Shown here one piece after another: positions 4,325-42,842 of a DNA stretch of 64,000 nt. The position numbers and the translations under genes were made by a program. The stretch spans positions 4,171-68,170 of the forward strand of contig DATKNR010000030.1 of NCBI GenBank assembly GCA_035541255.1. The letters run 5' to 3'. How positions within the stretch are numbered: position 1 is the stretch's first letter; each line of letters begins with the position of its first letter. Source of the stretch: Patescibacteria group bacterium (GTDB lineage Bacteria; Acidobacteriota; Terriglobia; Acidiferrales; UBA7541). The notes below the pieces were generated by a model. The model was not told where the DNA came from. It made no database searches and saw only the letters and a program-made list of their open reading frames with translations.

Positions 4325-6346
4325 ATGGACGGATTTGCCGGCAATGCCCCCGCTCATCTCGAAGACCCAGATCAGTCCGCGAGCGCAGAGGACGACCAAG
4401 ACGCCGAGCGGAAAATCCCGAATTCGGGCCGCGTCCGCTTTGGGGCGTTTGAAGCGAACCTGCGTACCCGGAAGCTATACCGCGGAAATGAAGTTGTCCG
4501 ACTGCAGGAAAAGCCCTTCCAGGTGCTGACCGCTCTGCTCGAAAGGGCGGGCTCCGTGGTGACACGCGAGGAGATCCGCGCCCGCGTGTGGCCGGATGAC
4601 GATTATCTAGATTTCGATGGCAACCTGAATACGGCGCTCAACAAACTCCGGCGCGCTCTGGGCGATCTGCGCGAGCAGCCCGCTTTTATCCGCACGATTC
4701 CGCGCACGGGATATCTCTTCATCGCGCCCGTCGCGGTACTGCCTGAAGAAGTCGCCGCGGAGAGTTCCGTTGAACTCTCCGAGCCCACCGCTCCCATTCC
4801 GCCGCCGGAGAAGACCATGGAGACTTCGGCGGTCGCCGAGGCGCGGCACAGCGCGGTCCGCTGGACTTATTTGGCGCTCGGCGTTTTGCTGTGCGGGCTG
4901 GGGGCCCTGACGCTACGTTTTCTGTGGCCCTATTCATCATGGGCATCGCGTCCGGTTACGGGAAGGGCGGTGCTGCTCGTGCTGCCGATAGAGAGTCCCG
5001 GAGGAGATTCCTCCAGCGCCGATTTTGCCGATGGGCTTTCCGACGCGTTGATTACGCGAATGTCCGGCGTCAATTCCAAGGACCTGGGAGTGATTGCGCG
5101 GACCACGGCGGCGCAATACCGCAACGCGCACAAGACGGCTGAACAAATCGGGCGCGAGCTGCACGTGGATTATCTGCTGGAGGGCACGGTCCGGCGGGAC
5201 GCGCAGCGCGAGCGCGTGTTTCTGTGGCTGGTGCGCACGAGCGATCAGGCTCCCGTCTGGGCGGAGACGTATGACCGGGGCGCGCAGGGAGCACTCTCCG
5301 CGGAGGATGAGATCTCCGCGCACGTTGCCGAGATCCTGGGAGCGAAATTCTTCGGCGGCACGGCCGGGGCCGCATTGCAGCCCGCGGGTTTGAATCCGGA
5401 AGCGCGTGAGGATTACCTGAGAGGCCGCTACTTCTGGAATCGACTGGCCGCTTCCGACCTGGAGAAAGCGCTGAGCCTCTACCAATCCGCGATCCGAAAA
5501 GAGCCGGCCTATGCCGAAGCTTACGTGGGAGTTGCGGAGACGTATGCGATGCTGGCGGATCAGACGGTGCGCGTCCCGGAACAGATGTTCCGCGCGGCGC
5601 GCGAAGCGGCGCAGACAGCGCTGGAACACGATCCCGCACTCTCCGAGGCGCATGCCGTGCTTGGGGCGGTGGCCTGGCAATACGATCACGATTGGGCCCG
5701 TGCCGATGCCGAGTTCGCCCGGGCGATCCATCTTTCGCCTTCCGACGCCACCGCGCGTCAATGGCACGGCGACTACCTGGCGGCGCTGGGACGCTTCGCG
5801 GAGGCGAACCGCGAGATGGAGGCGGCGCACCAACTGGACCCGCTCTCCCGGGTGATCACCACGGATCAGGGCTACACGTACTATCTGGCGCGCGACTATT
5901 CCCGTGCGGTCACCGCGTTCCGCGCAGCGCTCGAGCTGGACCCCAGCTTTTATGGCGCGCACATTTACCTGGCCTGGACCCGCATGCAGCAGGGGAATGG
6001 GAAGGAAGCCGCCGAGGAATGGTCCAGCCTGATGGATCTCCGGCACTCCCCATCCGAGCTTTCCGATTCCTTCCGGCGGGCGGCGGCGAAAGGCGATACG
6101 AAAGCCATGAACCGCTGGATCCTGGAGCGACAGCTGAAGCGGCGGGAGACCGGGTACAGCTCCGCGTGGCGCATCGCCACCGGCTACGCGGCGCTGGGAG
6201 AGAAGGACAAAGCGTTTGAGTGGATGGAGAAGGCGATCGAAGAGCACGATCCGGAAATTGCCCGGCTTCGCGTGGATCCCATGATGGATCCGCTGCGAAG
6301 CGATCCACGCTTCCAGGATTTTCTGGCGCGGCTGAACCTGCGCTGA
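4325..6346 (+). CDS. membrane-anchored winged-helix (OmpR/CadC-type) transcriptional regulator with periplasmic sensor module and TPR repeats
   Basis: ATG at 4325 lies 8 nt after GGAGGGG. N-terminal trans_reg_C pattern (VRLQEKPFQVLTALLERAGSVVTREEI...IRTIPRTGYLF). One TM (WTYLALGVLLCGLGALTL). LPIE..DGLSDALI module followed by repeated TPR-like A/Y/L helices. Confidence 0.8.
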   Translation: MDGFAGNAPAHLEDPDQSASAEDDQDAERKIPNSGRVRFGAFEANLRTRKLYRGNEVVRLQEKPFQVLTALLERAGSVVTREEIRARVWPDDDYLDFDGNLNTALNKLRRALGDLREQPAFIRTIPRTGYLFIAPVAVLPEEVAAESSVELSEPTAPIPPPEKTMETSAVAEARHSAVRWTYLALGVLLCGLGALTLRFLWPYSSWASRPVTGRAVLLVLPIESPGGDSSSADFADGLSDALITRMSGVNSKDLGVIARTTAAQYRNAHKTAEQIGRELHVDYLLEGTVRRDAQRERVFLWLVRTSDQAPVWAETYDRGAQGALSAEDEISAHVAEILGAKFFGGTAGAALQPAGLNPEAREDYLRGRYFWNRLAASDLEKALSLYQSAIRKEPAYAEAYVGVAETYAMLADQTVRVPEQMFRAAREAAQTALEHDPALSEAHAVLGAVAWQYDHDWARADAEFARAIHLSPSDATARQWHGDYLAALGRFAEANREMEAAHQLDPLSRVITTDQGYTYYLARDYSRAVTAFRAALELDPSFYGAHIYLAWTRMQQGNGKEAAEEWSSLMDLRHSPSELSDSFRRAAAKGDTKAMNRWILERQLKRRETGYSSAWRIATGYAALGEKDKAFEWMEKAIEEHDPEIARLRVDPMMDPLRSDPRFQDFLARLNLR

Positions 6347-6415: not shown

Positions 6416-8272
6416 ATGGTCCGCCGCGCACTCCTGGCCAGCCTGATTCTCGCGGCTGCGCCGTTCCTGTTGCTGCCTTCGTTCGCTCCCGTCGGGAGCG
6501 CTGGTCCCTCCGGCCGCTTGGAAAAGCGCGATGTGATGATCCCGATGCGCGACGGGGTGAAGCTGCACACCGAGATTTATTCTCCGCGTGGGACGCACGA
6601 GCCGCTGCCTATTCTCCTGGTGCGCACACCGTACGGGACAGGCGACGACGTGTTCGGCAATTCCCGGCAACTCGGCACGTATTCCGAAATTCTTGCCGAC
6701 GGTTACCTCTTCGTGATTCAGGACATACGCGGCCGGTTCGGTTCCGAAGGGGAATTCGTGATGCTCCGGCCGCCGCGCGACAGGAGCGACGCGAAGGCCA
6801 TCGACGAGAGCACGGATGCGTACGACACGGTGGACTGGCTGGTGAAACACGTATGGGGCAACAACGGGCGCGTGGGAATCACCGGAATTTCCTACCCCGG
6901 CTGGCTGGCGGAGATGGCTGCCCTCGATCCCCATCCGGCGGTGCGCGCCGTGTCCGAACAGGCATCGATCGCCGACATGTTTCTGGGAGACGACTTCCAC
7001 CACAACGGGGCGTTCCGGCTGAGCTACGGATTCGAGTACAGCGCCATGCTGGAAACCACGAAGCGAAATTACGATTTTTCCTTCGACCAGGACGACACGT
7101 ACTACTGGTATCTGACGCTCGGCCCGCTCTCCAATGCCAATGCGAAATATTTTCACGGGAAGCTTCCCACCTGGAACAATTTCATTGCGCATCCGAATTA
7201 CGACGAATTCTGGAAAAAGCAGTCGCTGCTCAGCTACGTGGGCGAGCCGAAAGTTCCCAATCTGAACGTAGCCGGGTGGTGGGACCAGGAGGATTTCTAC
7301 GGGCCGATGGAGATTTACCAGCTGCAGGAAAAATACGATCCTCACCACTGGAATTTTCTGATCGCCGGCCCATGGAATCACGGCGGCTGGGCGCACGGCG
7401 ACGGCGCCACGCTTGGCCCCGTGGAGTTCGGAAGCGATACGGCGCGTGACTTCCGGCGAGAGATTCAAGCTCCCTGGTTCGGCTACTGGCTGAAAGGGAA
7501 AGGTTCGCTGCCATTTGCCGAAGTGCGCGCGTTCCAGACCGGGTCGAACCGGTGGATTTCCTACGACGCGTGGCCGCCGGGCGATTCCGTTGCACGCGAC
7601 GTGTATTTTCGCGAGGACGGAGGTCTCTCCTTTGAGCCGCCGGCCGGCACCGGCGAGGATGGATTCGATTCCTATGTGTCTGACCCGGCGGATCCAGTGC
7701 CGTATCGCCGCCGTCCGATACTTCCCACGTATCAGGGTCCGGGCTGGACCACCTGGCAACTGGAGGATCAGCGCTTCGTGGAACATCGGCCCGACGTGCG
7801 GACCTGGAAATCGGCGCCGTTGGCGGAGGATCTGGCCATTGCCGGCGATATTGTGGCCTGCCTCTATGCCTCCACCACGGGAACCGACAGTGACTGGATT
7901 GTGAAGCTGATCGACGCCTACCCGTCCGACAATGCTCCCGACCACGAGATGGACGGCTACGAATTGATGATTGCCGACGAGGTGCTCCGCGGGCGGTTCC
8001 GCAACAGCTTGGAGAAGCCAGAGCCGGTGACGCCTGGAGAAATCGCGGAATACCGGATCGACCTGCACACCCACGATCACGTGTTTCTTCGTAGTCACCG
8101 GCTGATGGTGCAGGTGCAGAGCACGTGGTTTCCGCTGATCGACAGAAACCCGCAGAAATACGTTGCCAATATTTTTCTGGCCGGCACGGGCGATTATCAG
8201 CGCGCCACACAGCGCGTCTACCGCAACCGGCGGTATGCTTCTCACATCGAACTGCCGGTTGCACCGCGCTGA
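6416..8272 (+). CDS. CocE/NonD family hydrolase (S15 X-Pro dipeptidyl-peptidase-like), secreted
   Basis: ATG at 6416 (MVRRALLASLILAAAPFLL signal) after a GAGGGGG SD. MIPMRDGVKLHTEIY, Ser elbow GISYPGW, and a C-terminal jelly-roll domain with the typical RGRFR pattern. Confidence 0.85.
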   Translation: MVRRALLASLILAAAPFLLLPSFAPVGSAGPSGRLEKRDVMIPMRDGVKLHTEIYSPRGTHEPLPILLVRTPYGTGDDVFGNSRQLGTYSEILADGYLFVIQDIRGRFGSEGEFVMLRPPRDRSDAKAIDESTDAYDTVDWLVKHVWGNNGRVGITGISYPGWLAEMAALDPHPAVRAVSEQASIADMFLGDDFHHNGAFRLSYGFEYSAMLETTKRNYDFSFDQDDTYYWYLTLGPLSNANAKYFHGKLPTWNNFIAHPNYDEFWKKQSLLSYVGEPKVPNLNVAGWWDQEDFYGPMEIYQLQEKYDPHHWNFLIAGPWNHGGWAHGDGATLGPVEFGSDTARDFRREIQAPWFGYWLKGKGSLPFAEVRAFQTGSNRWISYDAWPPGDSVARDVYFREDGGLSFEPPAGTGEDGFDSYVSDPADPVPYRRRPILPTYQGPGWTTWQLEDQRFVEHRPDVRTWKSAPLAEDLAIAGDIVACLYASTTGTDSDWIVKLIDAYPSDNAPDHEMDGYELMIADEVLRGRFRNSLEKPEPVTPGEIAEYRIDLHTHDHVFLRSHRLMVQVQSTWFPLIDRNPQKYVANIFLAGTGDYQRATQRVYRNRRYASHIELPVAPR

Positions 8273-34020: not shown

Positions 34021-36441
34021 ATGGAACGGCTCGAGGCTCTTTATGAGCTGGCGACTTCGTATCATTCGTGCCGGGATACGGAAGGCCTCCTGAAAGCATT
34101 TGCGCGCGATCTGCGCGCTCGTCTGGGGCCCCAGGCTGTCCTTCTCTGGCTGAAGGATGGCGGCGAAGAATCCCTGCGCTGCCGTGAAAAGTCGTTCGCG
34201 GCCGGTGAGCGAATCGAACCACGGCAGGAGGGCGAAGCCGATGGCTTGCTGACCGAGGTCCTCGTCTCGCGCGGATCCCGGCGGCTGGGGGCGGCCGAAA
34301 AAAAGGCCCGGCTCCTTTCTCACCTCGATCCCGCCTATCGCGAACGCGTCCAGACAGCGCTGTACGTCTCCATTCCCGGCGCCTCGGGGCCTGCGGGGGT
34401 CGCGGAACTGCTGAACAAAGCCGGCGGCGAGTTCACCACCGAAGACGGCGCGTATCTCGAAGAAGCCGCACGCATGACCGGGCGTGCCCTGGACGCGATT
34501 CGCGCAGCCGAGACGGAGCGCAACGCGCAGTTCGAAACGCTGGAACGGCTCACCGCGCTTTACGATATCGCGCGCATATTCAACTCCACGCTTGAGCGGG
34601 AAGACCTGTGCCCCATCGTGACCAGCAAGATCCGCGACATCCTGGGAGCGCAGGCGTGCAACCTATGGCTTGTGGGCTCTGACGGCGAGTCGCTAGAGTT
34701 TGCCCATCAGGATGGGGAAGACCCCACCACGGACGAGAACACCGAAGTCACGATGGGCGAGGGGTTGGTCGGGGCAGTGGCTCGCGATGGGAAAGGTCTC
34801 CTGGCAGCCGACGCGTCCGTGGAGGCGCTGCTCGATTCCCGGCGCTCCGCGGTGGAGGGATTTACGATCACTTCCGCCATGGCCGCCCCGCTGCTCAAGG
34901 ACGATCGCGTGCTCGGCGTGGTCGAAGTGATCAACAAACTCGACGAGACTCAGTTCGACGATGACGACCTGTTTTTCCTCAACAGCGTGGGGGAGCAGGC
35001 CGGACTCGCCGTCCACAATGCCAACCTGCTGCAGGCCGAGCGCAAAGTGCACGAATTGGGAGCGCTGCTGACGCTGAGCAAGGAAATCACTTCCACGCTG
35101 GATCTCGACCACATTCTCACCACCCTGGTCCATCAGGCGGCGGAAGTGCTTCCCTTCGAACGCTGCACGATCGGCCTTTACGACGGCGCGAAGTTTTATC
35201 TTGCGGCGGTATCCGGTGAGCCGGAAGTGCCGGACACGCCGGAGATGAAGCGCCTTCGCGAGGTTCTGGAATGGGCCGGAGAGGACTACGAAGCGGTATC
35301 CGCGGACTGCGAGGATGGGACCTGGACGAGCGCGCCCGAAAAGCCGGATCCGCGCCTGATTCCTTACCTGACCGAGCGACAGATGAACGGTTTCTACGCA
35401 CGGTCGCTCCGCGACGACCAGGGCACGCTGGGCGTGATCGCGCTGGAGAGTCCTGAAGCGGAGTTTCTGTCCGAAAGCCAGCTCGAAACTCTTGAAATTC
35501 TGGCCAGCCAGGTGACCGTGGCGATTCGAAACGCGCGGTTGTACCAGAACGTCCCGCTGATTCGCGTCTGGCAGCCCGTGGTGGAAACGCGGCAGAAGTT
35601 GCGGTCGGTGGCTGTAGGGCGGCGTATCGAGCTGTTTACCCGGGCGATCGTGGTCGCTGTTCTCCTGGTGGCCGTGCCTTGGCCAATGCGGGTGGACGGG
35701 ACAGCGCACGTCATCCCGGCGCAGCGGAGAGTAATCACTGCGGAGTCGGACGGCATCATCCGGCAGGTCTTCGTCCACGAAGGCGAACGCGTGGAGGCCG
35801 GGGCTCCGCTTGCCCAGCTCGATACTGGTGAAATCAATGTCCGGCTGGAGACCGCGCGGGCGCAACTTGCCCTGGCGCGCCACGATCTTGCCGAGGCTCA
35901 GTATCGGCGGGACATGGAAGGCGCCGGCAGGGCTCGCCTGCGCATGGACATGGCCCAGGCCGCTGTGGATCTGGAGAGTGATCGGCTGGCTCGCGCCCGC
36001 CTCGTCGCGCCCATGGAAGGCCTGGTGGTGACCCCAAAAGTCGAGGAAAAAGTGGGCCGGCTCATTACGCGTGGCGAAACCTTCTGCGAATTGGTCGAGC
36101 CAAACCGCATGGCGGCTGACGTTTTGTTTCCGGAGACTGACGAATCGATGGTCCGGCCCGGCGCTTCCGTTGCCCTGAAGGTCAATGCCCTGCCCTCCGT
36201 CACCTTCCATGGCAAAGTGGAGTGGCTGGGCACGCAGACGGTCGCTTCCGAGGGCGACCAATATTTCCAGGCGCGTGCCGTGTTCGAGAACGCCATGGGT
36301 TTGCGCGACGACATGGTCGGTCAGGCCAAAGTGGGCGTGCGCGGCGGATGGTTCCAGAGCGGCTGGTATCCCGTGGGGTATGTTCTGTTGCGGCCGCCGG
36401 CCCGTTGGCTGTGGCGGAAAGTGTGGACTTGGCTTCCGTGA
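34021..36441 (+). CDS. triple-GAF domain / TM / HlyD-family (membrane-fusion) protein
   Basis: GGAGG SD. Three repeated GAF-like units. Each opens with an LExL..L..I....L helix: LEALYELATSY..., LTALYDIARIFNSTLERE..., LGALLTLSKEITSTLDLD.... One TM (AIVVAVLLVAVPW). Then an MFP lipoyl/coiled-coil/beta-barrel pattern (ITAESDGIIRQVFVHEGERVEAGAPLAQLD ... LVAPMEGLVV). Confidence 0.85.
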   Translation: MERLEALYELATSYHSCRDTEGLLKAFARDLRARLGPQAVLLWLKDGGEESLRCREKSFAAGERIEPRQEGEADGLLTEVLVSRGSRRLGAAEKKARLLSHLDPAYRERVQTALYVSIPGASGPAGVAELLNKAGGEFTTEDGAYLEEAARMTGRALDAIRAAETERNAQFETLERLTALYDIARIFNSTLEREDLCPIVTSKIRDILGAQACNLWLVGSDGESLEFAHQDGEDPTTDENTEVTMGEGLVGAVARDGKGLLAADASVEALLDSRRSAVEGFTITSAMAAPLLKDDRVLGVVEVINKLDETQFDDDDLFFLNSVGEQAGLAVHNANLLQAERKVHELGALLTLSKEITSTLDLDHILTTLVHQAAEVLPFERCTIGLYDGAKFYLAAVSGEPEVPDTPEMKRLREVLEWAGEDYEAVSADCEDGTWTSAPEKPDPRLIPYLTERQMNGFYARSLRDDQGTLGVIALESPEAEFLSESQLETLEILASQVTVAIRNARLYQNVPLIRVWQPVVETRQKLRSVAVGRRIELFTRAIVVAVLLVAVPWPMRVDGTAHVIPAQRRVITAESDGIIRQVFVHEGERVEAGAPLAQLDTGEINVRLETARAQLALARHDLAEAQYRRDMEGAGRARLRMDMAQAAVDLESDRLARARLVAPMEGLVVTPKVEEKVGRLITRGETFCELVEPNRMAADVLFPETDESMVRPGASVALKVNALPSVTFHGKVEWLGTQTVASEGDQYFQARAVFENAMGLRDDMVGQAKVGVRGGWFQSGWYPVGYVLLRPPARWLWRKVWTWLP

Positions 36442-36491: not shown

Positions 36492-37403
36492 ATGAAATCC
36501 TGGGCACTCTGCCTGTCGGCCGCGCTGCTGGCCGCCATGGCCGCGGGATGCAGCAGCGAGCCCGCACCCGAACGGGCCGCAGCGGCCTCCTCGCGCACGC
36601 CCTCTTCTCATCCGGCGGCTGCGACGGCTTCCGCAGCTTCCGCGCGGGAGATCCCAGCAGTGCTGATGGTGGAGCATGAGGTGGACGTGGTGGCGGAAGG
36701 CGACGGTGAGGTCATCGGGCTAAACGCCGATGAGGGATCGGAAGTGACTGCCGGCGGACTTCTCGCGCGGCTGGATTCACGGCAGGTGCAGGCGCAGCTC
36801 GAGCAAGCGCAGGCCGACCTGAAGATTTCCGAGTACAACGTGAAATACAACGAAGCCGAACTCCACGCCAACGAGTCCCGTCTAAGACGCGCCCAGCTCA
36901 TGTTTAACGAAGGACTCGGCAGCAAGGCCGACCTGGACACCGCCGAATTTCAAGCCAAGGGTTCCGCGTACGACCTGGAAAGCTGGAAGGCAACCGTTGA
37001 GAAGCGCCACGCAGAGGTGAAAGGCCTCGAACTTCAACTTCAAAAAACCCGCATCCTTGCGCCCTTTGCCGGCGTGATCTCGCGGCGATACGTTCGCGAG
37101 GGCGACGTGGTCACCAAGGGAACCAAATGTTTCCGCCTCAGCCAACTGAGCCCGCTGCTCGTGGAATTTCAGGTGCCGGAAACCGATGCCCACAAGCCGG
37201 CTGTGGCACAGCCCGTGAAAGGGACTTTGCTGAGCGATCCAAACCGCTGGTTTGACGCGCGAATCACACGCGTCAGCCCAGTTGTGGATGCGGCTAGCGG
37301 AAGTTACGAGGTCAGGGCCACGCTTCTGGCGCCATCGCCGGAGCTAAAGCCTGGGATGGCCGTTCGGATCGTCTGGCCCGCGCCCTCCACGCCTCACCCC
37401 TGA
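36492..37403 (+). CDS. lipoprotein HlyD/RND-type periplasmic adaptor (membrane-fusion protein)
   Basis: ATG at 36492 after GGAGAG. Lipobox LAAMAAGC. MFP pattern (VVAEGDGEVIGLNADEGSEVTAGGLLARLD, coiled-coil hairpin, ILAPFAGVISRRYVREGDVV). The ORF-track 5' extension (36222) is rejected. Confidence 0.85.
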   Translation: MKSWALCLSAALLAAMAAGCSSEPAPERAAAASSRTPSSHPAAATASAASAREIPAVLMVEHEVDVVAEGDGEVIGLNADEGSEVTAGGLLARLDSRQVQAQLEQAQADLKISEYNVKYNEAELHANESRLRRAQLMFNEGLGSKADLDTAEFQAKGSAYDLESWKATVEKRHAEVKGLELQLQKTRILAPFAGVISRRYVREGDVVTKGTKCFRLSQLSPLLVEFQVPETDAHKPAVAQPVKGTLLSDPNRWFDARITRVSPVVDAASGSYEVRATLLAPSPELKPGMAVRIVWPAPSTPHP

Positions 37404-37406
37404 GCC

Positions 37407-39578
37407 ATGCGGCTCGGTCCCACTTCGCTGCGGGCCCAGGGTGCCGTGGCCCGTGCCCTGCGGCGTCCCAAGCTGCGGGAGGACCTCCAAATCAGTGAGC
37501 AAGTGGTCCGCGGCGAGACCAGCTTTGTCATCAAGGTTCCTCACCTGTTCAAATACGCGCGCTATGGACCGCTGGAATTCAGCGTATTGAAGCAGGCGGA
37601 TGGCACGCGAACCCTCGCGGAAATTGCCGCCGGCGTCAACGCGGAGGCCGGGGAAGAAGCGATCGGCGAAGCTGACGTCGGCGACTTCCTCGAATCCACC
37701 GATCCCGACCTGTGGGAGGAGGGAGCGGGGAAAAAGAATCTTGCCATCCTGGAAAAGATCCGCGAGGAACGACGCGAGCGCGTAAACACGGCAAGCGTTT
37801 TGTACATCCACTTTTCCGCGTGGAATCCCGACCGCACTCTCGAACGGATTCTGCCCTACCTCCGCTGGCTCTTCACCCCGTGGTTCGTCGCGTTCTCGGT
37901 GCTCCTGTACACCGTCATGGCAGTGATCCTGGCAAACAACTGGACGCGCGTGCAGAGCGACACGGTGGCGTTCTACACCTTCACGAATAAGACCCTCTAT
38001 GACATCTGGGAATTCTGGGCGATTTTGTTCGTGGTGATCGCCGTCCATGAGTTCGGCCACGGACTTACCTGCAAGTATTTTGGCGGTGAGGTGCCGCGGA
38101 TGGGCTTCATGCTCATCTATTTCGGGCCGGCCTTTTTCACCGACACGACGGACATGCACGTATTCGATAAGTCGTCGAAGCGGCTATGGGTCATTTTCGC
38201 CGGGCTGTGGATCGAAATGGTCATCTGCGCATTTGCCACGATTGCTTGGGCGCTTGCGCCTCCCGGCTCTTCCTTCAGCGACCTGTGTTACAAGACGGTC
38301 CTGCTCACCGGCGTCTCCGGGCTCATCTTCAACCTGAATCCGCTGATGAAGTACGACGGTTACTACGCGCTCATGCAGTTTCTCGAGATCGACAACATGC
38401 GCGAGGACGCTTTCGATTACCTGAAATTGTGGATGCGGCGCTACGTGCTGAGGCAGGACGTCGAGCTGCCTCAGGTGGGCAAGCGCCGGCGGCGGATCTT
38501 TCTCATTTATGCTTCGCTTGCCGTCCTGTATGGCGCATTCGTGCTGATTCTGGTCGCGGGGTGGCTCAGGAATTTCTTGGTGAATCGCCTCGGCGTGGGC
38601 TGGGGTTATTTAATCACGGCCGTGGCGTTGTACTTCATGACGCGCAAGAGTTTGTTGCCGGCACTTGCCACGGTGCGTAACCGCCTGCCCGTTTGGAAGG
38701 AGCATCTTATGGCCTGGAAAATGTCGAGAACGCAGCAGGTGGGAGTCGCCGCCGCTTTCCTTCTGATTCTGGTCACACCGATTTCTCGCACCACCACCAG
38801 CGAATTCCTGCTCGAGCCAGGCGTGCGAGCCGAGGCCCGTGCGCAGATGTCCGGATGGGTCGACCAGGTGCTCATCCGCTCCGGCGATTCCGTAAACCAG
38901 GGGCAGGTACTGGCCGTGTTGCGCAACCCCGAACTCGATGCCCATCTCCGCGAGCTCTCCGCGCAGCGTTCTCTCGCCGAGAATTCGCTTCTGGCGTCCC
39001 GCCAGCGGCGGGATAACAACGCCGCCGACGTCGCGTTCCGTGAATTCCAGCGTCTGGACGCGGCGGTGCACGAGGCCCGTGTGCAACAGGGTCACCTCTT
39101 GTTGCTGGCGCCGCACACGGGCGTTGTGACCACGCTCGGTGTGGAACAGACCGTAGGCGAATTCCTGCCGCAGGGCGGACTGTTTGCCGTCATCGCAGAC
39201 CGCAGTGTGATGCGCGCGCGCATCCTGGTGCGCGACTGGGAACTTCAGTATGTCACCGACGCCGCGTCCAACTCTCCGTCCGGTATGGAAGCCCTGCTCA
39301 ATGTGCGTTCCTATCCTTATCGCAGCTTTGAGGGCCGGGTGACGCGAATCCTGCCCGCGGCGGCGACGGACGAGCCCGTCACTCTTCCCAAAAGCCCGGA
39401 GAGGGCGGGTCAGCGCCTCAGCAACTACTTTGCTGTGGAGATGGAATTCCAGAATTCCGGGGGCGAATTGCGGGAAGGTATGACGGGCACTGCCAAAATC
39501 TATGGTGCACATCGGCGGCCACTGATCTGGCAGTGGACGCGGGGATCCTGGCGCTGGCTTCGTTCTGTTCTCTGGTAG
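37407..39578 (+). CDS. PqqD-like N-domain / M50 (site-2-protease-type) intramembrane zinc metalloprotease / HlyD-like C-domain fusion
   Basis: Starts 3 nt after the upstream stop. HEFGH zinc motif in a TM helix (FVVIAVHEFGHGLTCKYFGGEV). Second S2P motif FNLNPLMKYDGYY. Multiple TMs. C-terminal MFP-like lipoyl/coiled-coil/barrel (GWVDQVLIRSGDSVNQGQVLAVL ... LLAPHTGVVTT). Confidence 0.85.
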   Translation: MRLGPTSLRAQGAVARALRRPKLREDLQISEQVVRGETSFVIKVPHLFKYARYGPLEFSVLKQADGTRTLAEIAAGVNAEAGEEAIGEADVGDFLESTDPDLWEEGAGKKNLAILEKIREERRERVNTASVLYIHFSAWNPDRTLERILPYLRWLFTPWFVAFSVLLYTVMAVILANNWTRVQSDTVAFYTFTNKTLYDIWEFWAILFVVIAVHEFGHGLTCKYFGGEVPRMGFMLIYFGPAFFTDTTDMHVFDKSSKRLWVIFAGLWIEMVICAFATIAWALAPPGSSFSDLCYKTVLLTGVSGLIFNLNPLMKYDGYYALMQFLEIDNMREDAFDYLKLWMRRYVLRQDVELPQVGKRRRRIFLIYASLAVLYGAFVLILVAGWLRNFLVNRLGVGWGYLITAVALYFMTRKSLLPALATVRNRLPVWKEHLMAWKMSRTQQVGVAAAFLLILVTPISRTTTSEFLLEPGVRAEARAQMSGWVDQVLIRSGDSVNQGQVLAVLRNPELDAHLRELSAQRSLAENSLLASRQRRDNNAADVAFREFQRLDAAVHEARVQQGHLLLLAPHTGVVTTLGVEQTVGEFLPQGGLFAVIADRSVMRARILVRDWELQYVTDAASNSPSGMEALLNVRSYPYRSFEGRVTRILPAAATDEPVTLPKSPERAGQRLSNYFAVEMEFQNSGGELREGMTGTAKIYGAHRRPLIWQWTRGSWRWLRSVLW

Positions 39579-39682: not shown

Positions 39683-39751
39683 TTACTTCTTTGCGGAGAG
39701 AGTCTTGGTGCCGGAAAGCTTCTTGCCTCTCTTCAAGCTCTTCTTTGCCAT
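39683..39751 (-). CDS. Lys-rich mini-protein P1 (22 aa): MAKKSLKRGKKLSGTKTLSAKK
   Basis: Hand-translated. ATG 6 nt after GGAGGA. Paralogous to P2 and P3 at protein and DNA level. It has its own sigma-54-type promoter and terminator. The in-frame 78-aa track ORF 39683..39919 is the unsupported long form. Confidence 0.7.
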   Translation of the reverse strand: MAKKSLKRGKKLSGTKTLSAKK

Positions 39752-40446: not shown

Positions 40447-40533
40447 TTACCGAAGTCCCCGCATGTTATTTACGGCAGACAGGGTCTTCGAAGGCGCCAG
40501 CTTCTTGCCCTTCTTCAATTCTTTCTTCGCCAT
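40447..40533 (-). CDS. Lys-rich mini-protein P2 (28 aa): MAKKELKKGKKLAPSKTLSAVNNMRGLR
   Basis: Hand-translated. ATG 5 nt after GGGAGGA. The first 39 nt are nearly identical to P3. It has its own sigma-54-type promoter and terminator. Confidence 0.7.
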   Translation of the reverse strand: MAKKELKKGKKLAPSKTLSAVNNMRGLR

Positions 40534-40933: not shown

Positions 40934-41008
40934 CTAGTAGGTGCCGCGTCCACCGAGGCTCTTCGTGCCGGCCAGCTTCTTGCCCTTCTTCAACGCTTTC
41001 TTCGCCAT
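40934..41008 (-). CDS. Lys-rich mini-protein P3 (24 aa): MAKKALKKGKKLAGTKSLGGRGTY
   Basis: Hand-translated. ATG 6 nt after GGAGGA. Paralogous to P1 and P2. It has its own sigma-54-type promoter and terminator. Confidence 0.7.
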   Translation of the reverse strand: MAKKALKKGKKLAGTKSLGGRGTY

Positions 41009-41366: not shown

Positions 41367-42755
41367 CTATAATTGGTGCTTCCGGCAGAGATATTTCATC
41401 CGGTCTTTGTTCACACCCAGCAGTCTTGCCGCCTGGATTTTCACACCGGAGGCCTGTGCCAGCGCGGTCTCCACCCACTTTTTTTCGTAGGTTTCGAGCT
41501 CGGCTTCTAAGTCGAATCCGGAAGGTGGCAGGCGGAAACGGCCCCGCGCATCCCGGGTGGCGGCCTGCACGATGTCCCGGGGCAGATCACTCAGTTCTAT
41601 CCTGTCCCCATCCGTCATCAGCACGATGCGCTGCACCGCATTCTCCAGCTCGCGGACATTTCCAGGCCAGCGGTAGTTTTGCAGCGCCTGCATGGCTTCT
41701 TCGCTCACGGTCTTGGGTTCCGAGTGATTTGCCACGCAATACACGCGCACAAAATGGTTCACCAGCAGCGGAATATCCGACTCGCGCTCCCGCAGCGGCG
41801 GCAGAAACACGGGGACCACGTGAATCCGGAAGTACAAGTCTTCCCGGAACCGTTTTTCCTCGACTGCCGCTTCCAAATCCTCGTTCGTCGCTGTGAGCAG
41901 CCGAAAGTCCACTGCCAGCGGCCGTTTGCCGCCCAGATGAATCACCGCGTGGTCCTCCAGCACGCGCAGCAGCTTGCTCTGCAATGCCGGGGTCAGCGTA
42001 CCAATTTCGTCCAGGAACAGAGTTCCCCGGTGCGCCAACTCGATGCGTCCTTCCTTGCTTTCCGTGGCGCCGGTAAATGCCCCCTTCTCGTACCCGAAAA
42101 GCTCCGCCTCCATCAGGGTTTCCGGCAGTGCAGCGCAATTCACGCTGATAAAGGGACGTGCGCGCCGCTCGCTTAGGTCGTGGATGGCGTGCGCCACCAG
42201 CTCTTTTCCCGTTCCGCTCTCTCCGCGGATGCACACCGTGGTTGTTTTGGGAGCCACACGGCGGACCAGGTCGAAGATTGGCCGCATGGCGTCGCTCGCG
42301 CCAATCAGGTTTCCCAGCGATTCCTTCCGCTGGATCTGCTCCCGCAGGATGCGGTTCTCCCGTTCCACCCGCTGCTTTTCCACGGCCCGGTCCAGAAAGG
42401 GACGGAAAACGTCAGGGTCAATGGGGTGTGCGAAAAAATCGTACGCGCCCGATTCCATCGCGCGGACAGCCGTGGCTTTGCGCGGGTCGCGGCTCAGGAT
42501 TACGACCATCGTGTCCATCTCGCGGGAGCGCAGCCGTTCGACGAGCGCCTCGAACCGGCGGAAGCTCGCGGCCCCGGGTTCCAGGTTGTACAGGATCAAA
42601 TCGGGCCGCGCTTCATCGATCAACGGCCATTCCGATTCTTCCTCGGTGGACTGGTAGATCTCATAATCCGGGAGAAGCCGGCTCACCACCGGCTGCAGAC
42701 CGCTCACGTCGTTCGTCATGATGACGACGTGGCAGCGGCTTGGGTTGGGGGACAT
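41367..42755 (-). CDS. sigma-54 enhancer-binding protein with degenerate receiver domain
   Basis: AAA+ core ([27 protein letters not shown]) and C-terminal HTH (SGVKIQAARLLGVNKDRMKYL). The N-terminal REC-like fold has Asn in place of the phospho-Asp (PDLILYNLEP). ATG at 42755 was chosen because the track TTG start (42842) coincides with the -35 hexamer. Confidence 0.9.
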   Translation of the reverse strand: MSPNPSRCHVVIMTNDVSGLQPVVSRLLPDYEIYQSTEEESEWPLIDEARPDLILYNLEPGAASFRRFEALVERLRSREMDTMVVILSRDPRKATAVRAMESGAYDFFAHPIDPDVFRPFLDRAVEKQRVERENRILREQIQRKESLGNLIGASDAMRPIFDLVRRVAPKTTTVCIRGESGTGKELVAHAIHDLSERRARPFISVNCAALPETLMEAELFGYEKGAFTGATESKEGRIELAHRGTLFLDEIGTLTPALQSKLLRVLEDHAVIHLGGKRPLAVDFRLLTATNEDLEAAVEEKRFREDLYFRIHVVPVFLPPLRERESDIPLLVNHFVRVYCVANHSEPKTVSEEAMQALQNYRWPGNVRELENAVQRIVLMTDGDRIELSDLPRDIVQAATRDARGRFRLPPSGFDLEAELETYEKKWVETALAQASGVKIQAARLLGVNKDRMKYLCRKHQL

Positions 42756-42813
42756 ATGGGACTCGAGGTGCGTTGCCGGCCGCTCACAGGGCAGGCTCGC
42801 GCAGGCAGGCGCG

Positions 42814-42842
42814 ATTCTAGGAAGCGCCGCCCGGGTTGTCAA
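42814..42842 (-). promoter_or_regulatory. sigma-70-type promoter of the EBP gene
   Basis: On the minus strand: TTGACA (42842-42837), 17-nt spacer, TAGAAT (42819-42814). The -10 lies about 59 nt upstream of ATG 42755. Confidence 0.5.

Follow-up and report, generated by a model that had tools for sequence, protein, structure and literature searches.

A PqqD/RRE-type domain fused to a site-2 protease and a MacA-like adaptor, encoded beside lysine-rich mini-peptides in an acidobacterium

Peptide-maturation enzymes use recognition elements for peptides that are made by ribosomes and modified after translation (RiPP recognition elements, RREs) as handles for finding their substrates. In the daptide pathway, the leader peptidase MpaP is an intramembrane site-2 protease (S2P) with an RRE fused to its N-terminus, and the pathway is defined by MpaB (DUF-RRE), an oxidoreductase, an aminotransferase and a methyltransferase, with precursors that bear an ELExMEAP motif and a C-terminal Thr (Ren et al. 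2023, 10.1101/2023.03.08.531785, PMC10028931). The other closely related system is the GAF-HlyD / Peptidase_M50-HlyD / HlyD module, described as a type-I-secretion-like machine of unknown role and defined by a secondary SecA_DEAD protein; its description mentions neither a PqqD/RRE domain nor a peptide cargo (Kamneva, Poudel and Ward 2015, PMC4452313). Here we analysed a 64,000-nucleotide stretch of an acidobacterial contig (DATKNR010000030.1; hereafter the window), which encodes a 723-aa protein that we call RRE-M50-HlyD and, directly downstream of it, three short lysine-rich peptides that begin with MAKK. By computation we established the fold and homology of the N-terminal domain, the three-part architecture of the protein, its catalytic motifs, its partnership with the peptides and the charge complementarity between the two. 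With an RRE on this protease-adaptor fusion, the operon described in 2015 becomes a testable hypothesis: a leader would be read by the protease, which would have the mini-peptides as cargo.

The window protein is a triple fusion of an RRE, a site-2 (M50) protease and a MacA-like periplasmic adaptor. An N-terminal RRE on a site-2 metalloprotease is already a published architecture, that of MpaP, and the likeness extends to the adjoining genes for several short precursors, whose leader is conserved and whose core varies. Unlike MpaP, however, the window protein bears an extra C-terminal HlyD/MacA adaptor. Its cassette has neither conserved MpaB/C/D/M-type enzymes nor ABC transporters, its peptides have no ELExMEAP motif and do not end in the invariant Thr (their last residues are Y, R and K), and its host is a Gram-negative acidobacterium. 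The NCBIfam model daptide_HExxH (NF041824) matched residues 36-411 with 179.8 bits (E = 8.4e-53), under its 300-bit cut-off; as the defining enzymes and peptide motifs were also absent, membership of the daptide family was rejected. The same three HlyD-bearing proteins as in the 2015 module are encoded together at the window locus, but the secondary SecA_DEAD protein of the Planctomycetes-Verrucomicrobia-Chlamydiae (PVC)-type module is missing from the acidobacterial version. In the literature searched on RRE/PqqD with M50, HlyD or Acidobacteria we found no RRE-M50-HlyD fusion with Lys-rich peptides, and the daptide paper alone was relevant.

A first-pass annotation of the window had assigned residues about 20-110 to a PqqD-type RRE; the stretch that it marked (37467-37737) corresponds to residues 21-110 of the 723-aa open reading frame (ORF), and the peptide that it quoted to residues 23-97. 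We built an AlphaFold2 (AF2) model of residues 1-150 on 39 homologues. The model comprises three β-strands (β1 28-34, β2 37-44, β3 49-53) followed by three α-helices (α1 55-63, α2 70-81, α3 88-97), with a predicted local distance difference test (pLDDT) value of 83-89 over residues 21-100, and the full-length AF2 model contains the same three strands and three helices in its N-terminal domain. The predicted topology is that of RREs. When the model of residues 1-150 was compared with the PDB using Foldseek, the top group (probability 0.95-1.0) consisted of the winged helix of the methyltransferase Rv2067c (8hkr), PqqD (5sxy), and TbiB1 (5v1u/5v1v) and TfuB1 (6jx3) with their leaders, with TglHI, CteB and SuiB further down the list. 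Target-normalised template-modelling (TM) scores were 0.50-0.62 for PqqD, TbiB1 and TfuB1 versus 0.14-0.15 for 8hkr. With PqqD (3g2b, 5sxy) and the lasso-peptide RREs (TbiB1, TfuB1), the window domain shares the β3-α3 winged helix and the signature 'DGxxT..eI...V..fl..L'. It differs from PqqD and stand-alone RREs in being tethered to a membrane protease, in the strong acidity of its α3 region and in a presumed ligand that is polycationic.

Three results for the window protein itself count against this assignment. The Foldseek E-values were modest (4e-3 to 0.1), which is expected because the domain has only ~80 residues. The PqqD profile TIGR03859 matched residues 60-97 at profile positions 36-73 in the correct register, but scored far under the cut-off (13.7-16.4 bits against 46, E = 0.006-0.04). 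No match to Pfam PqqD (PF05402) was obtained at E≤1 in a scan of the whole protein or of residues 1-148. A narrow clade profile (A1) likewise gave no significant match to PqqD among the PDB sequences (E = 1.2), and detection of PqqD by sequence required a broader, family-level profile (A2). A full-library search with residues 1-150 yielded 249 cluster representatives, and the best 150 of these provided 54 full-length proteins of 570-820 aa with the domain at or near the N-terminus, all 54 of which contain HExxH. On their own, 18 of 55 aligned distant N-domains matched Pfam PqqD (best E = 9.7e-8). The best PDB sequences for A2 were PqqD 3g2b (E = 0.0014), TfuB1 6jx3, PqqD 5sxy, PaaA 5ff5, the methyltransferase 8hkr, TbiB1 5v1u and PqqCD 5vrd.

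A generic winged helix, DNA-binding or otherwise, with a superficial or chance resemblance to PqqD, would fit the methyltransferase part 8hkr as best Foldseek match, the direct PqqD score under threshold and the four family members that matched Pfam PKMT_2nd. We consider this very improbable, given that PqqD/RRE proteins make up six of the seven PDB sequences that the family profile matches best, that about a third of the distant members match Pfam PqqD (see above), and that a three-stranded sheet stands ahead of the helices, a hallmark of RREs. The net charge of the domain (-7) argues against DNA binding, which was rejected on this ground. Because the AF2 structure, Foldseek and the family-level sequence analysis agree, the identity of the domain is settled: residues ~22-100 were confirmed as a true PqqD/RRE-type winged helix, with a resemblance well beyond chance. 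The structural and profile similarity on which the first-pass annotation had made its assignment depend was thus found with the Foldseek search and the family profile, the window protein's own hidden Markov model (HMM) score remaining sub-threshold.

The RRE domain is patchily distributed: of 151 genomes sampled from the class, 50 have it, as do 12 of the 20 genomes from the window's own family. Two copies are present in several genomes, and some of the matches fall within frames of ~800-900 aa, suggesting further architectures.

Fusion of the RRE to an intramembrane protease, also claimed in the first-pass annotation, was borne out. Both S2P motifs are intact, HEFGH (HExxH) being followed by NLNPLMKYDG (NxxPxxxxDG) in a later helix, and the daptide_HExxH match described above spans RRE and protease core; the protease is apparently active. 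The NCBIfam YydH/LiaK model (NF058609) matched residues 163-332 (E = 1.7e-15, 57 bits against a cut-off of 225), and Pfam PF02163 scored 25.3 bits, slightly under its cut-off of 27.2. Like the window protein, YydH/LiaK is an M50-type membrane protease, one that is dedicated to the maturation of a small ribosomal peptide; unlike the window protein, that family has no RRE or membrane-fusion protein (MFP) fusion, and its partner radical-SAM epimerase is absent at the window locus. A Foldseek search with the full-length model returned mostly MFP adaptors, and the S2P fold is assigned from sequence. Hydropathy and the AF2 model indicate about seven membrane helices. The odd number of hydrophobic segments fits a cytoplasmic RRE and a periplasmic C-terminal MFP, which is the topology that we predict. 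In the full-length model, a short conserved strand before the first transmembrane (TM) helix (residues 133-136, 37803-37814, LYIHF region) and a β-hairpin after the HEFGH helix (residues 231-246, 38097-38144) could together form a substrate-binding sheet as in other site-2 proteases.

Residues ~464-723 form a MacA/MexA-type membrane-fusion module with an α-hairpin. Pfam HlyD_D23 scored 44 bits, over its cut-off of 30; a profile comparison with the PDB matched MacA (E = 2.5e-16), and Foldseek returned MacA/MexA/AcrA (E ~1e-14, target-normalised TM score 0.5-0.73). The start codon of the gene lies 3 nt past the stop of the preceding HlyD lipoprotein gene, and the call is sound because the N-terminus MR(F/L)GPTSL is kept across hundreds of homologues.

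The first-pass annotation had named the MAKK peptides as the only obvious candidate partner of the RRE, and genomic context agrees with this. The three peptides are encoded by short minus-strand genes and share a conserved N-block (residues 1-18, MAKKxLKKxKKxxxTKxL), followed by tails that are hypervariable and 4-13 residues long across related loci. From Acidobacteriota genomes we gathered 80 related loci. In 39 of them a strict pattern picked up 1-4 MAKK-type peptides, nearly all convergent with and directly downstream of the protease gene, and a looser Lys-rich filter found convergent downstream peptides in about 68. Around them the cassette is kept, with GAF-HlyD at 76 loci, lipoprotein HlyD at 79, RRE-M50-HlyD at all 80 and the sigma-54 activator at 72, while the flanks are not conserved. 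Codon use at the invariant N-block positions differs synonymously (Ala, for example, is written with four codons and Leu with five), which speaks for a translated block under purifying selection. Of the 151 sampled genomes, five gave a match to the MAKK profile, all among the 50 with an RRE domain and none among the 101 without, and in three of the five a peptide is encoded 2-4 kb away from the RRE gene. Given the relatedness of the genomes and the narrowness of the profile, this co-occurrence is supportive and not statistical proof. No Pfam or NCBIfam family exists for the MAKK peptides. These results support the MAKK peptides as conserved genomic partners of RRE-M50-HlyD.

The N-block has a six-residue Leu/Ile periodicity (positions 6, 12 and 18). 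At some Acidiferrales loci, Lys-rich peptides carry tandem-repeat tails (ASLQR x6, GAGVLQR x3, GALTRP x3, VKPLMN x3 and LKGVTA repeats).

We also compared distant relatives. The GAF-HlyD / HlyD / RRE-M50-HlyD module is retained at all six distant loci, which come from Blastocatellia, Gemmatimonadota-like and other lineages, and the regulators beside it vary: an enhancer-binding protein (EBP) plus kinase, Crp-like or BTAD. These loci carry another peptide family with an acidic leader, ...V(R/K)I(E/K)LT(E/P)EQ...ATGKD...ELE(E/Q)RIAP, followed by short variable tails such as RTML, RTVVPS and GKGFSAVDM. ELEERIAP is reminiscent of ELExMEAP in daptide leaders; these peptides belong to no Pfam or NCBIfam family and gave a weak match to the ammosamide/lymphostin leader model (E = 0.027). 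Some relatives encode multi-core precursors, in which the shared LTEEQ...ATGKD leader precedes eight copies of EETARANPLAIGA or several of ESRKAPTGLGAGQDN; such tandem units suggest repeated cleavage at an (R/K)x(A/N)P motif. An RRE that is conserved while the neighbouring leader family switches is what leader recognition predicts. As another candidate cargo, giant proteins in the window's own genome were considered and rejected: a loose whole-genome regular-expression search turned up no convincing ELExRIAP tag and no convincing N-terminal tag of the LEPRxLL type.

Next to these leader types, we examined the charge of the RRE. The MAKK leaders carry +6/+7, and the RRE (residues 22-100) has a net charge of -7 in the window and a mean of -8 in its clade (range -11 to -4); RREs of lineages with acidic leaders range from +1 to +5. 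Across seven lineages, leader and RRE charge were anticorrelated (Spearman rho -0.75, p = 0.054). The difference is concentrated in the α2-α3 loop and helix α3 (residues 83-104), which carry -9 in the window and -7.4 on average in the clade versus -2.6 ± 2.6 among 52 representatives of distant relatives; between the two groups, no charge difference is seen in the strands or in helices α1 and α2. The α3 region is strongly acidic only in the clade with cationic peptides. In solved RRE-leader complexes (TbiB1, TfuB1), the leader sits between β3 and α3. The charge inversion of the groove, which tracks the switch from acidic to polycationic leaders, offers a simple mutational test of recognition.

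Some RRE-like domains of other enzymes are degenerate, and the window RRE could likewise have kept its fold and lost peptide binding, serving a structural or docking role (for example, towards GAF domains or the activator) while the MAKK peptides act as independent cytoplasmic polycations. The β3 residues Y50 and R52 are kept regardless of leader class, suggesting a structural role, and two further MAKK genes in the same genome are unlinked to the cassette, on another contig. Nevertheless, conservation of the domain is high (within the clade, column identity averages 71%), the charge of α3 follows that of the neighbouring peptides, and linkage of the peptide genes to the module is tight and specific over distant lineages. 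Loss of binding thus appears quite unlikely.

Taken together, we think it probable, though by a distance from certain, that the cytoplasmic RRE captures the cationic N-block, that the S2P cuts near the junction of block and tail, and that one fragment exits through the adaptors. In this mechanism, the RRE would be tethered by a basic helix to a seven-TM site-2 metalloprotease core, which would continue into a periplasmic MacA-like adaptor. First, the acidic groove formed by β3 and α3 would capture the polycationic N-block of the cytoplasmic MAKK peptides. Capture would then set the junction between conserved block and hypervariable tail at the HEFGH/NPxxxxDG active site. Finally, the peptide would be cut and one product would leave through an assembly with the GAF-HlyD and lipoprotein adaptors. 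Binding, the cleavage site, the product fragment, its export and the source of energy are what we infer from the computed features.

Several observations speak against this mechanism. The tails are extremely short, 4-10 aa in the window peptides, and the motifs in the solved RRE-leader complexes are hydrophobic and strand-forming, which a poly-lysine leader does not resemble. About 12 of the 80 related loci had no peptide under the filters applied, and the two further MAKK genes on another contig are unlinked to the cassette. Across the 80 loci, the conserved genes of the cassette include no pump, ATPase or modifying enzyme. A secondary SecA was not found either: the genome, which is 92% complete, has one SecA_DEAD match and the cassette has none, and this sole match (at 1352-2533 of contig C84, another contig, within a 981-aa frame) looks like the housekeeping SecA. 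The charge correlation comprises seven lineages and ignores kinship.

The lack of an exporter or ATPase in the cassette would also suit a model in which the MAKK peptides bind the RRE as regulators, switching the protease or the adaptor, and the real substrate is another protein, for example GAF-HlyD in a regulated-intramembrane-proteolysis loop with the sigma-54 activator. GAF-HlyD, with one TM segment and a large cytoplasmic sensor part, is always co-encoded, and the regulator next to the module varies by lineage (EBP, Crp-like, BTAD). However, a conserved block with a hypervariable tail, and multi-core repeats, are typical of processed precursors, and the closest named families of the protease (daptide_HExxH and YydH/LiaK) are peptide-maturation proteases. 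We therefore regard a purely regulatory role of the peptides as unlikely. Overall, the interpretation of the RRE as a leader-binding domain is supported but unproven.

A further-reaching and more doubtful possibility is that the cassette is a self-contained leader-guided machine without a pump or ATPase, in which the charge-inverted RRE groove reads the polycationic leader, the S2P core both cuts and gates, and the three HlyD adaptors export unmodified tails of 4-13 aa from a Gram-negative cell. Such a machine would resemble in concept the peptidase-containing ABC transporters (PCATs), in which a C39 protease and an ABC exporter with an HlyD adaptor couple leader recognition, cleavage and MFP export in one membrane assembly. 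It would differ from them in its zinc S2P instead of a cysteine C39 protease, in having no ABC domains or ATPase, and in recognition by an RRE instead of the protease domain. If so, the exported tails would make soil Acidobacteriota the source of a new class of ribosomal peptides that are secreted and possibly act as signals, and the window cassette would be one branch of a broad RRE-M50-HlyD family in which leader type (Lys-rich versus ELEERIAP) co-varies with RRE electrostatics. Should the leader-capture model hold, it would point to many short secreted peptides that await exploration in soil Acidobacteriota, which are hard to culture, and would describe an export route without a recognisable motor.

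The features of the window and of the related loci are listed in Table 1. The EBP of the window was assigned by equivalence, Response_reg and Sigma54_activat (Pfam) having been seen in the equivalent gene of the distant locus L081.

Table 1 Coordinates of the RRE-M50-HlyD cassette in the window and of peptide genes at other loci (positions refer to the window unless a locus is named).
Feature	Position	Strand	Basis
RRE-M50-HlyD gene, 723 aa	37407-39578	+	ORF list
RRE/PqqD-like winged-helix domain, residues 22-100	37470..37706	+	AF2, Foldseek, family profile vs PDB, Pfam PqqD
Acidic α2-α3 loop and helix α3 (net charge -9), residues 83-104; putative docking site of cationic leader	37653..37718	+	Charge analysis
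Basic linker helix, residues 105-138, running into first TM	37719..37820	+	AF2 secondary structure, conservation in clade alignment A1
Site-2-protease (M50) membrane core, about 7 hydrophobic segments	37860..38795	+	Pfam, NCBIfam, motifs, hydropathy, AF2
HEFGH, residues 214-218	38046-38060	+	Motif
NLNPLMKYDG, residues 309-318	38331-38360	+	Motif
C-terminal periplasmic membrane-fusion (HlyD/MacA-like) module, α-hairpin 508-562	38796..39578	+	Pfam, PDB profile, Foldseek
3xGAF-TM-HlyD protein, first gene of conserved module	34021..36441	+	Pfam; 76/80 related loci
Lipoprotein HlyD/MFP adaptor, lipobox AAGC	36492..37403	+	Domain matches; 79/80 related loci
Sigma-54 EBP gene, upstream of peptide genes	41367..42842	-	ORF; 72/80 loci; domains read from L081 equivalent
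MAKK peptide 1, MAKKALKKGKKLAGTKSLGGRGTY	40934..41008	-	ORF, locus survey; purifying selection on N-block
MAKK peptide 2, MAKKELKKGKKLAPSKTLSAVNNMRGLR	40447..40533	-	ORF, locus survey
MAKK peptide 3, MAKKSLKRGKKLSGTKTLSAKK	39683..39751	-	ORF, locus survey
Unlinked MAKK-type genes MAKKALKKGKKLSGAKTLKAHKMLKANKLLRGGGFR and MAKKLKKGKKIASTMTLSLAAYFTSKGQKQG, flanking SET-domain-like ORF	L088 (own contig C49) about 6052-6171, 6932-7027	+	
Lys-rich peptides with tandem-repeat tails	L006 3208-3369, L007 6317-6499, L008 6536-6694, L032 10279-10386, L072 10821-10982	all -	
Multi-core precursors	L081 9552-9977; L084 8519-9129	-; -	
46-55-aa peptides with ELE(E/Q)RIAP leader and 4-11-aa tails, by Crp-like/BTAD modules	L082 9854-11060, L083 4188-4528, L085 8951-9118, L086 2598-2956	+	

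Each of the two unlinked MAKK genes is preceded by a GGGGTAnTAAnTCCC-like palindrome, as found upstream of the window cassettes. By eye, a GG-N10-GC (sigma-54-like) spacing stands before the first of them, and it too resembles the window cassettes.

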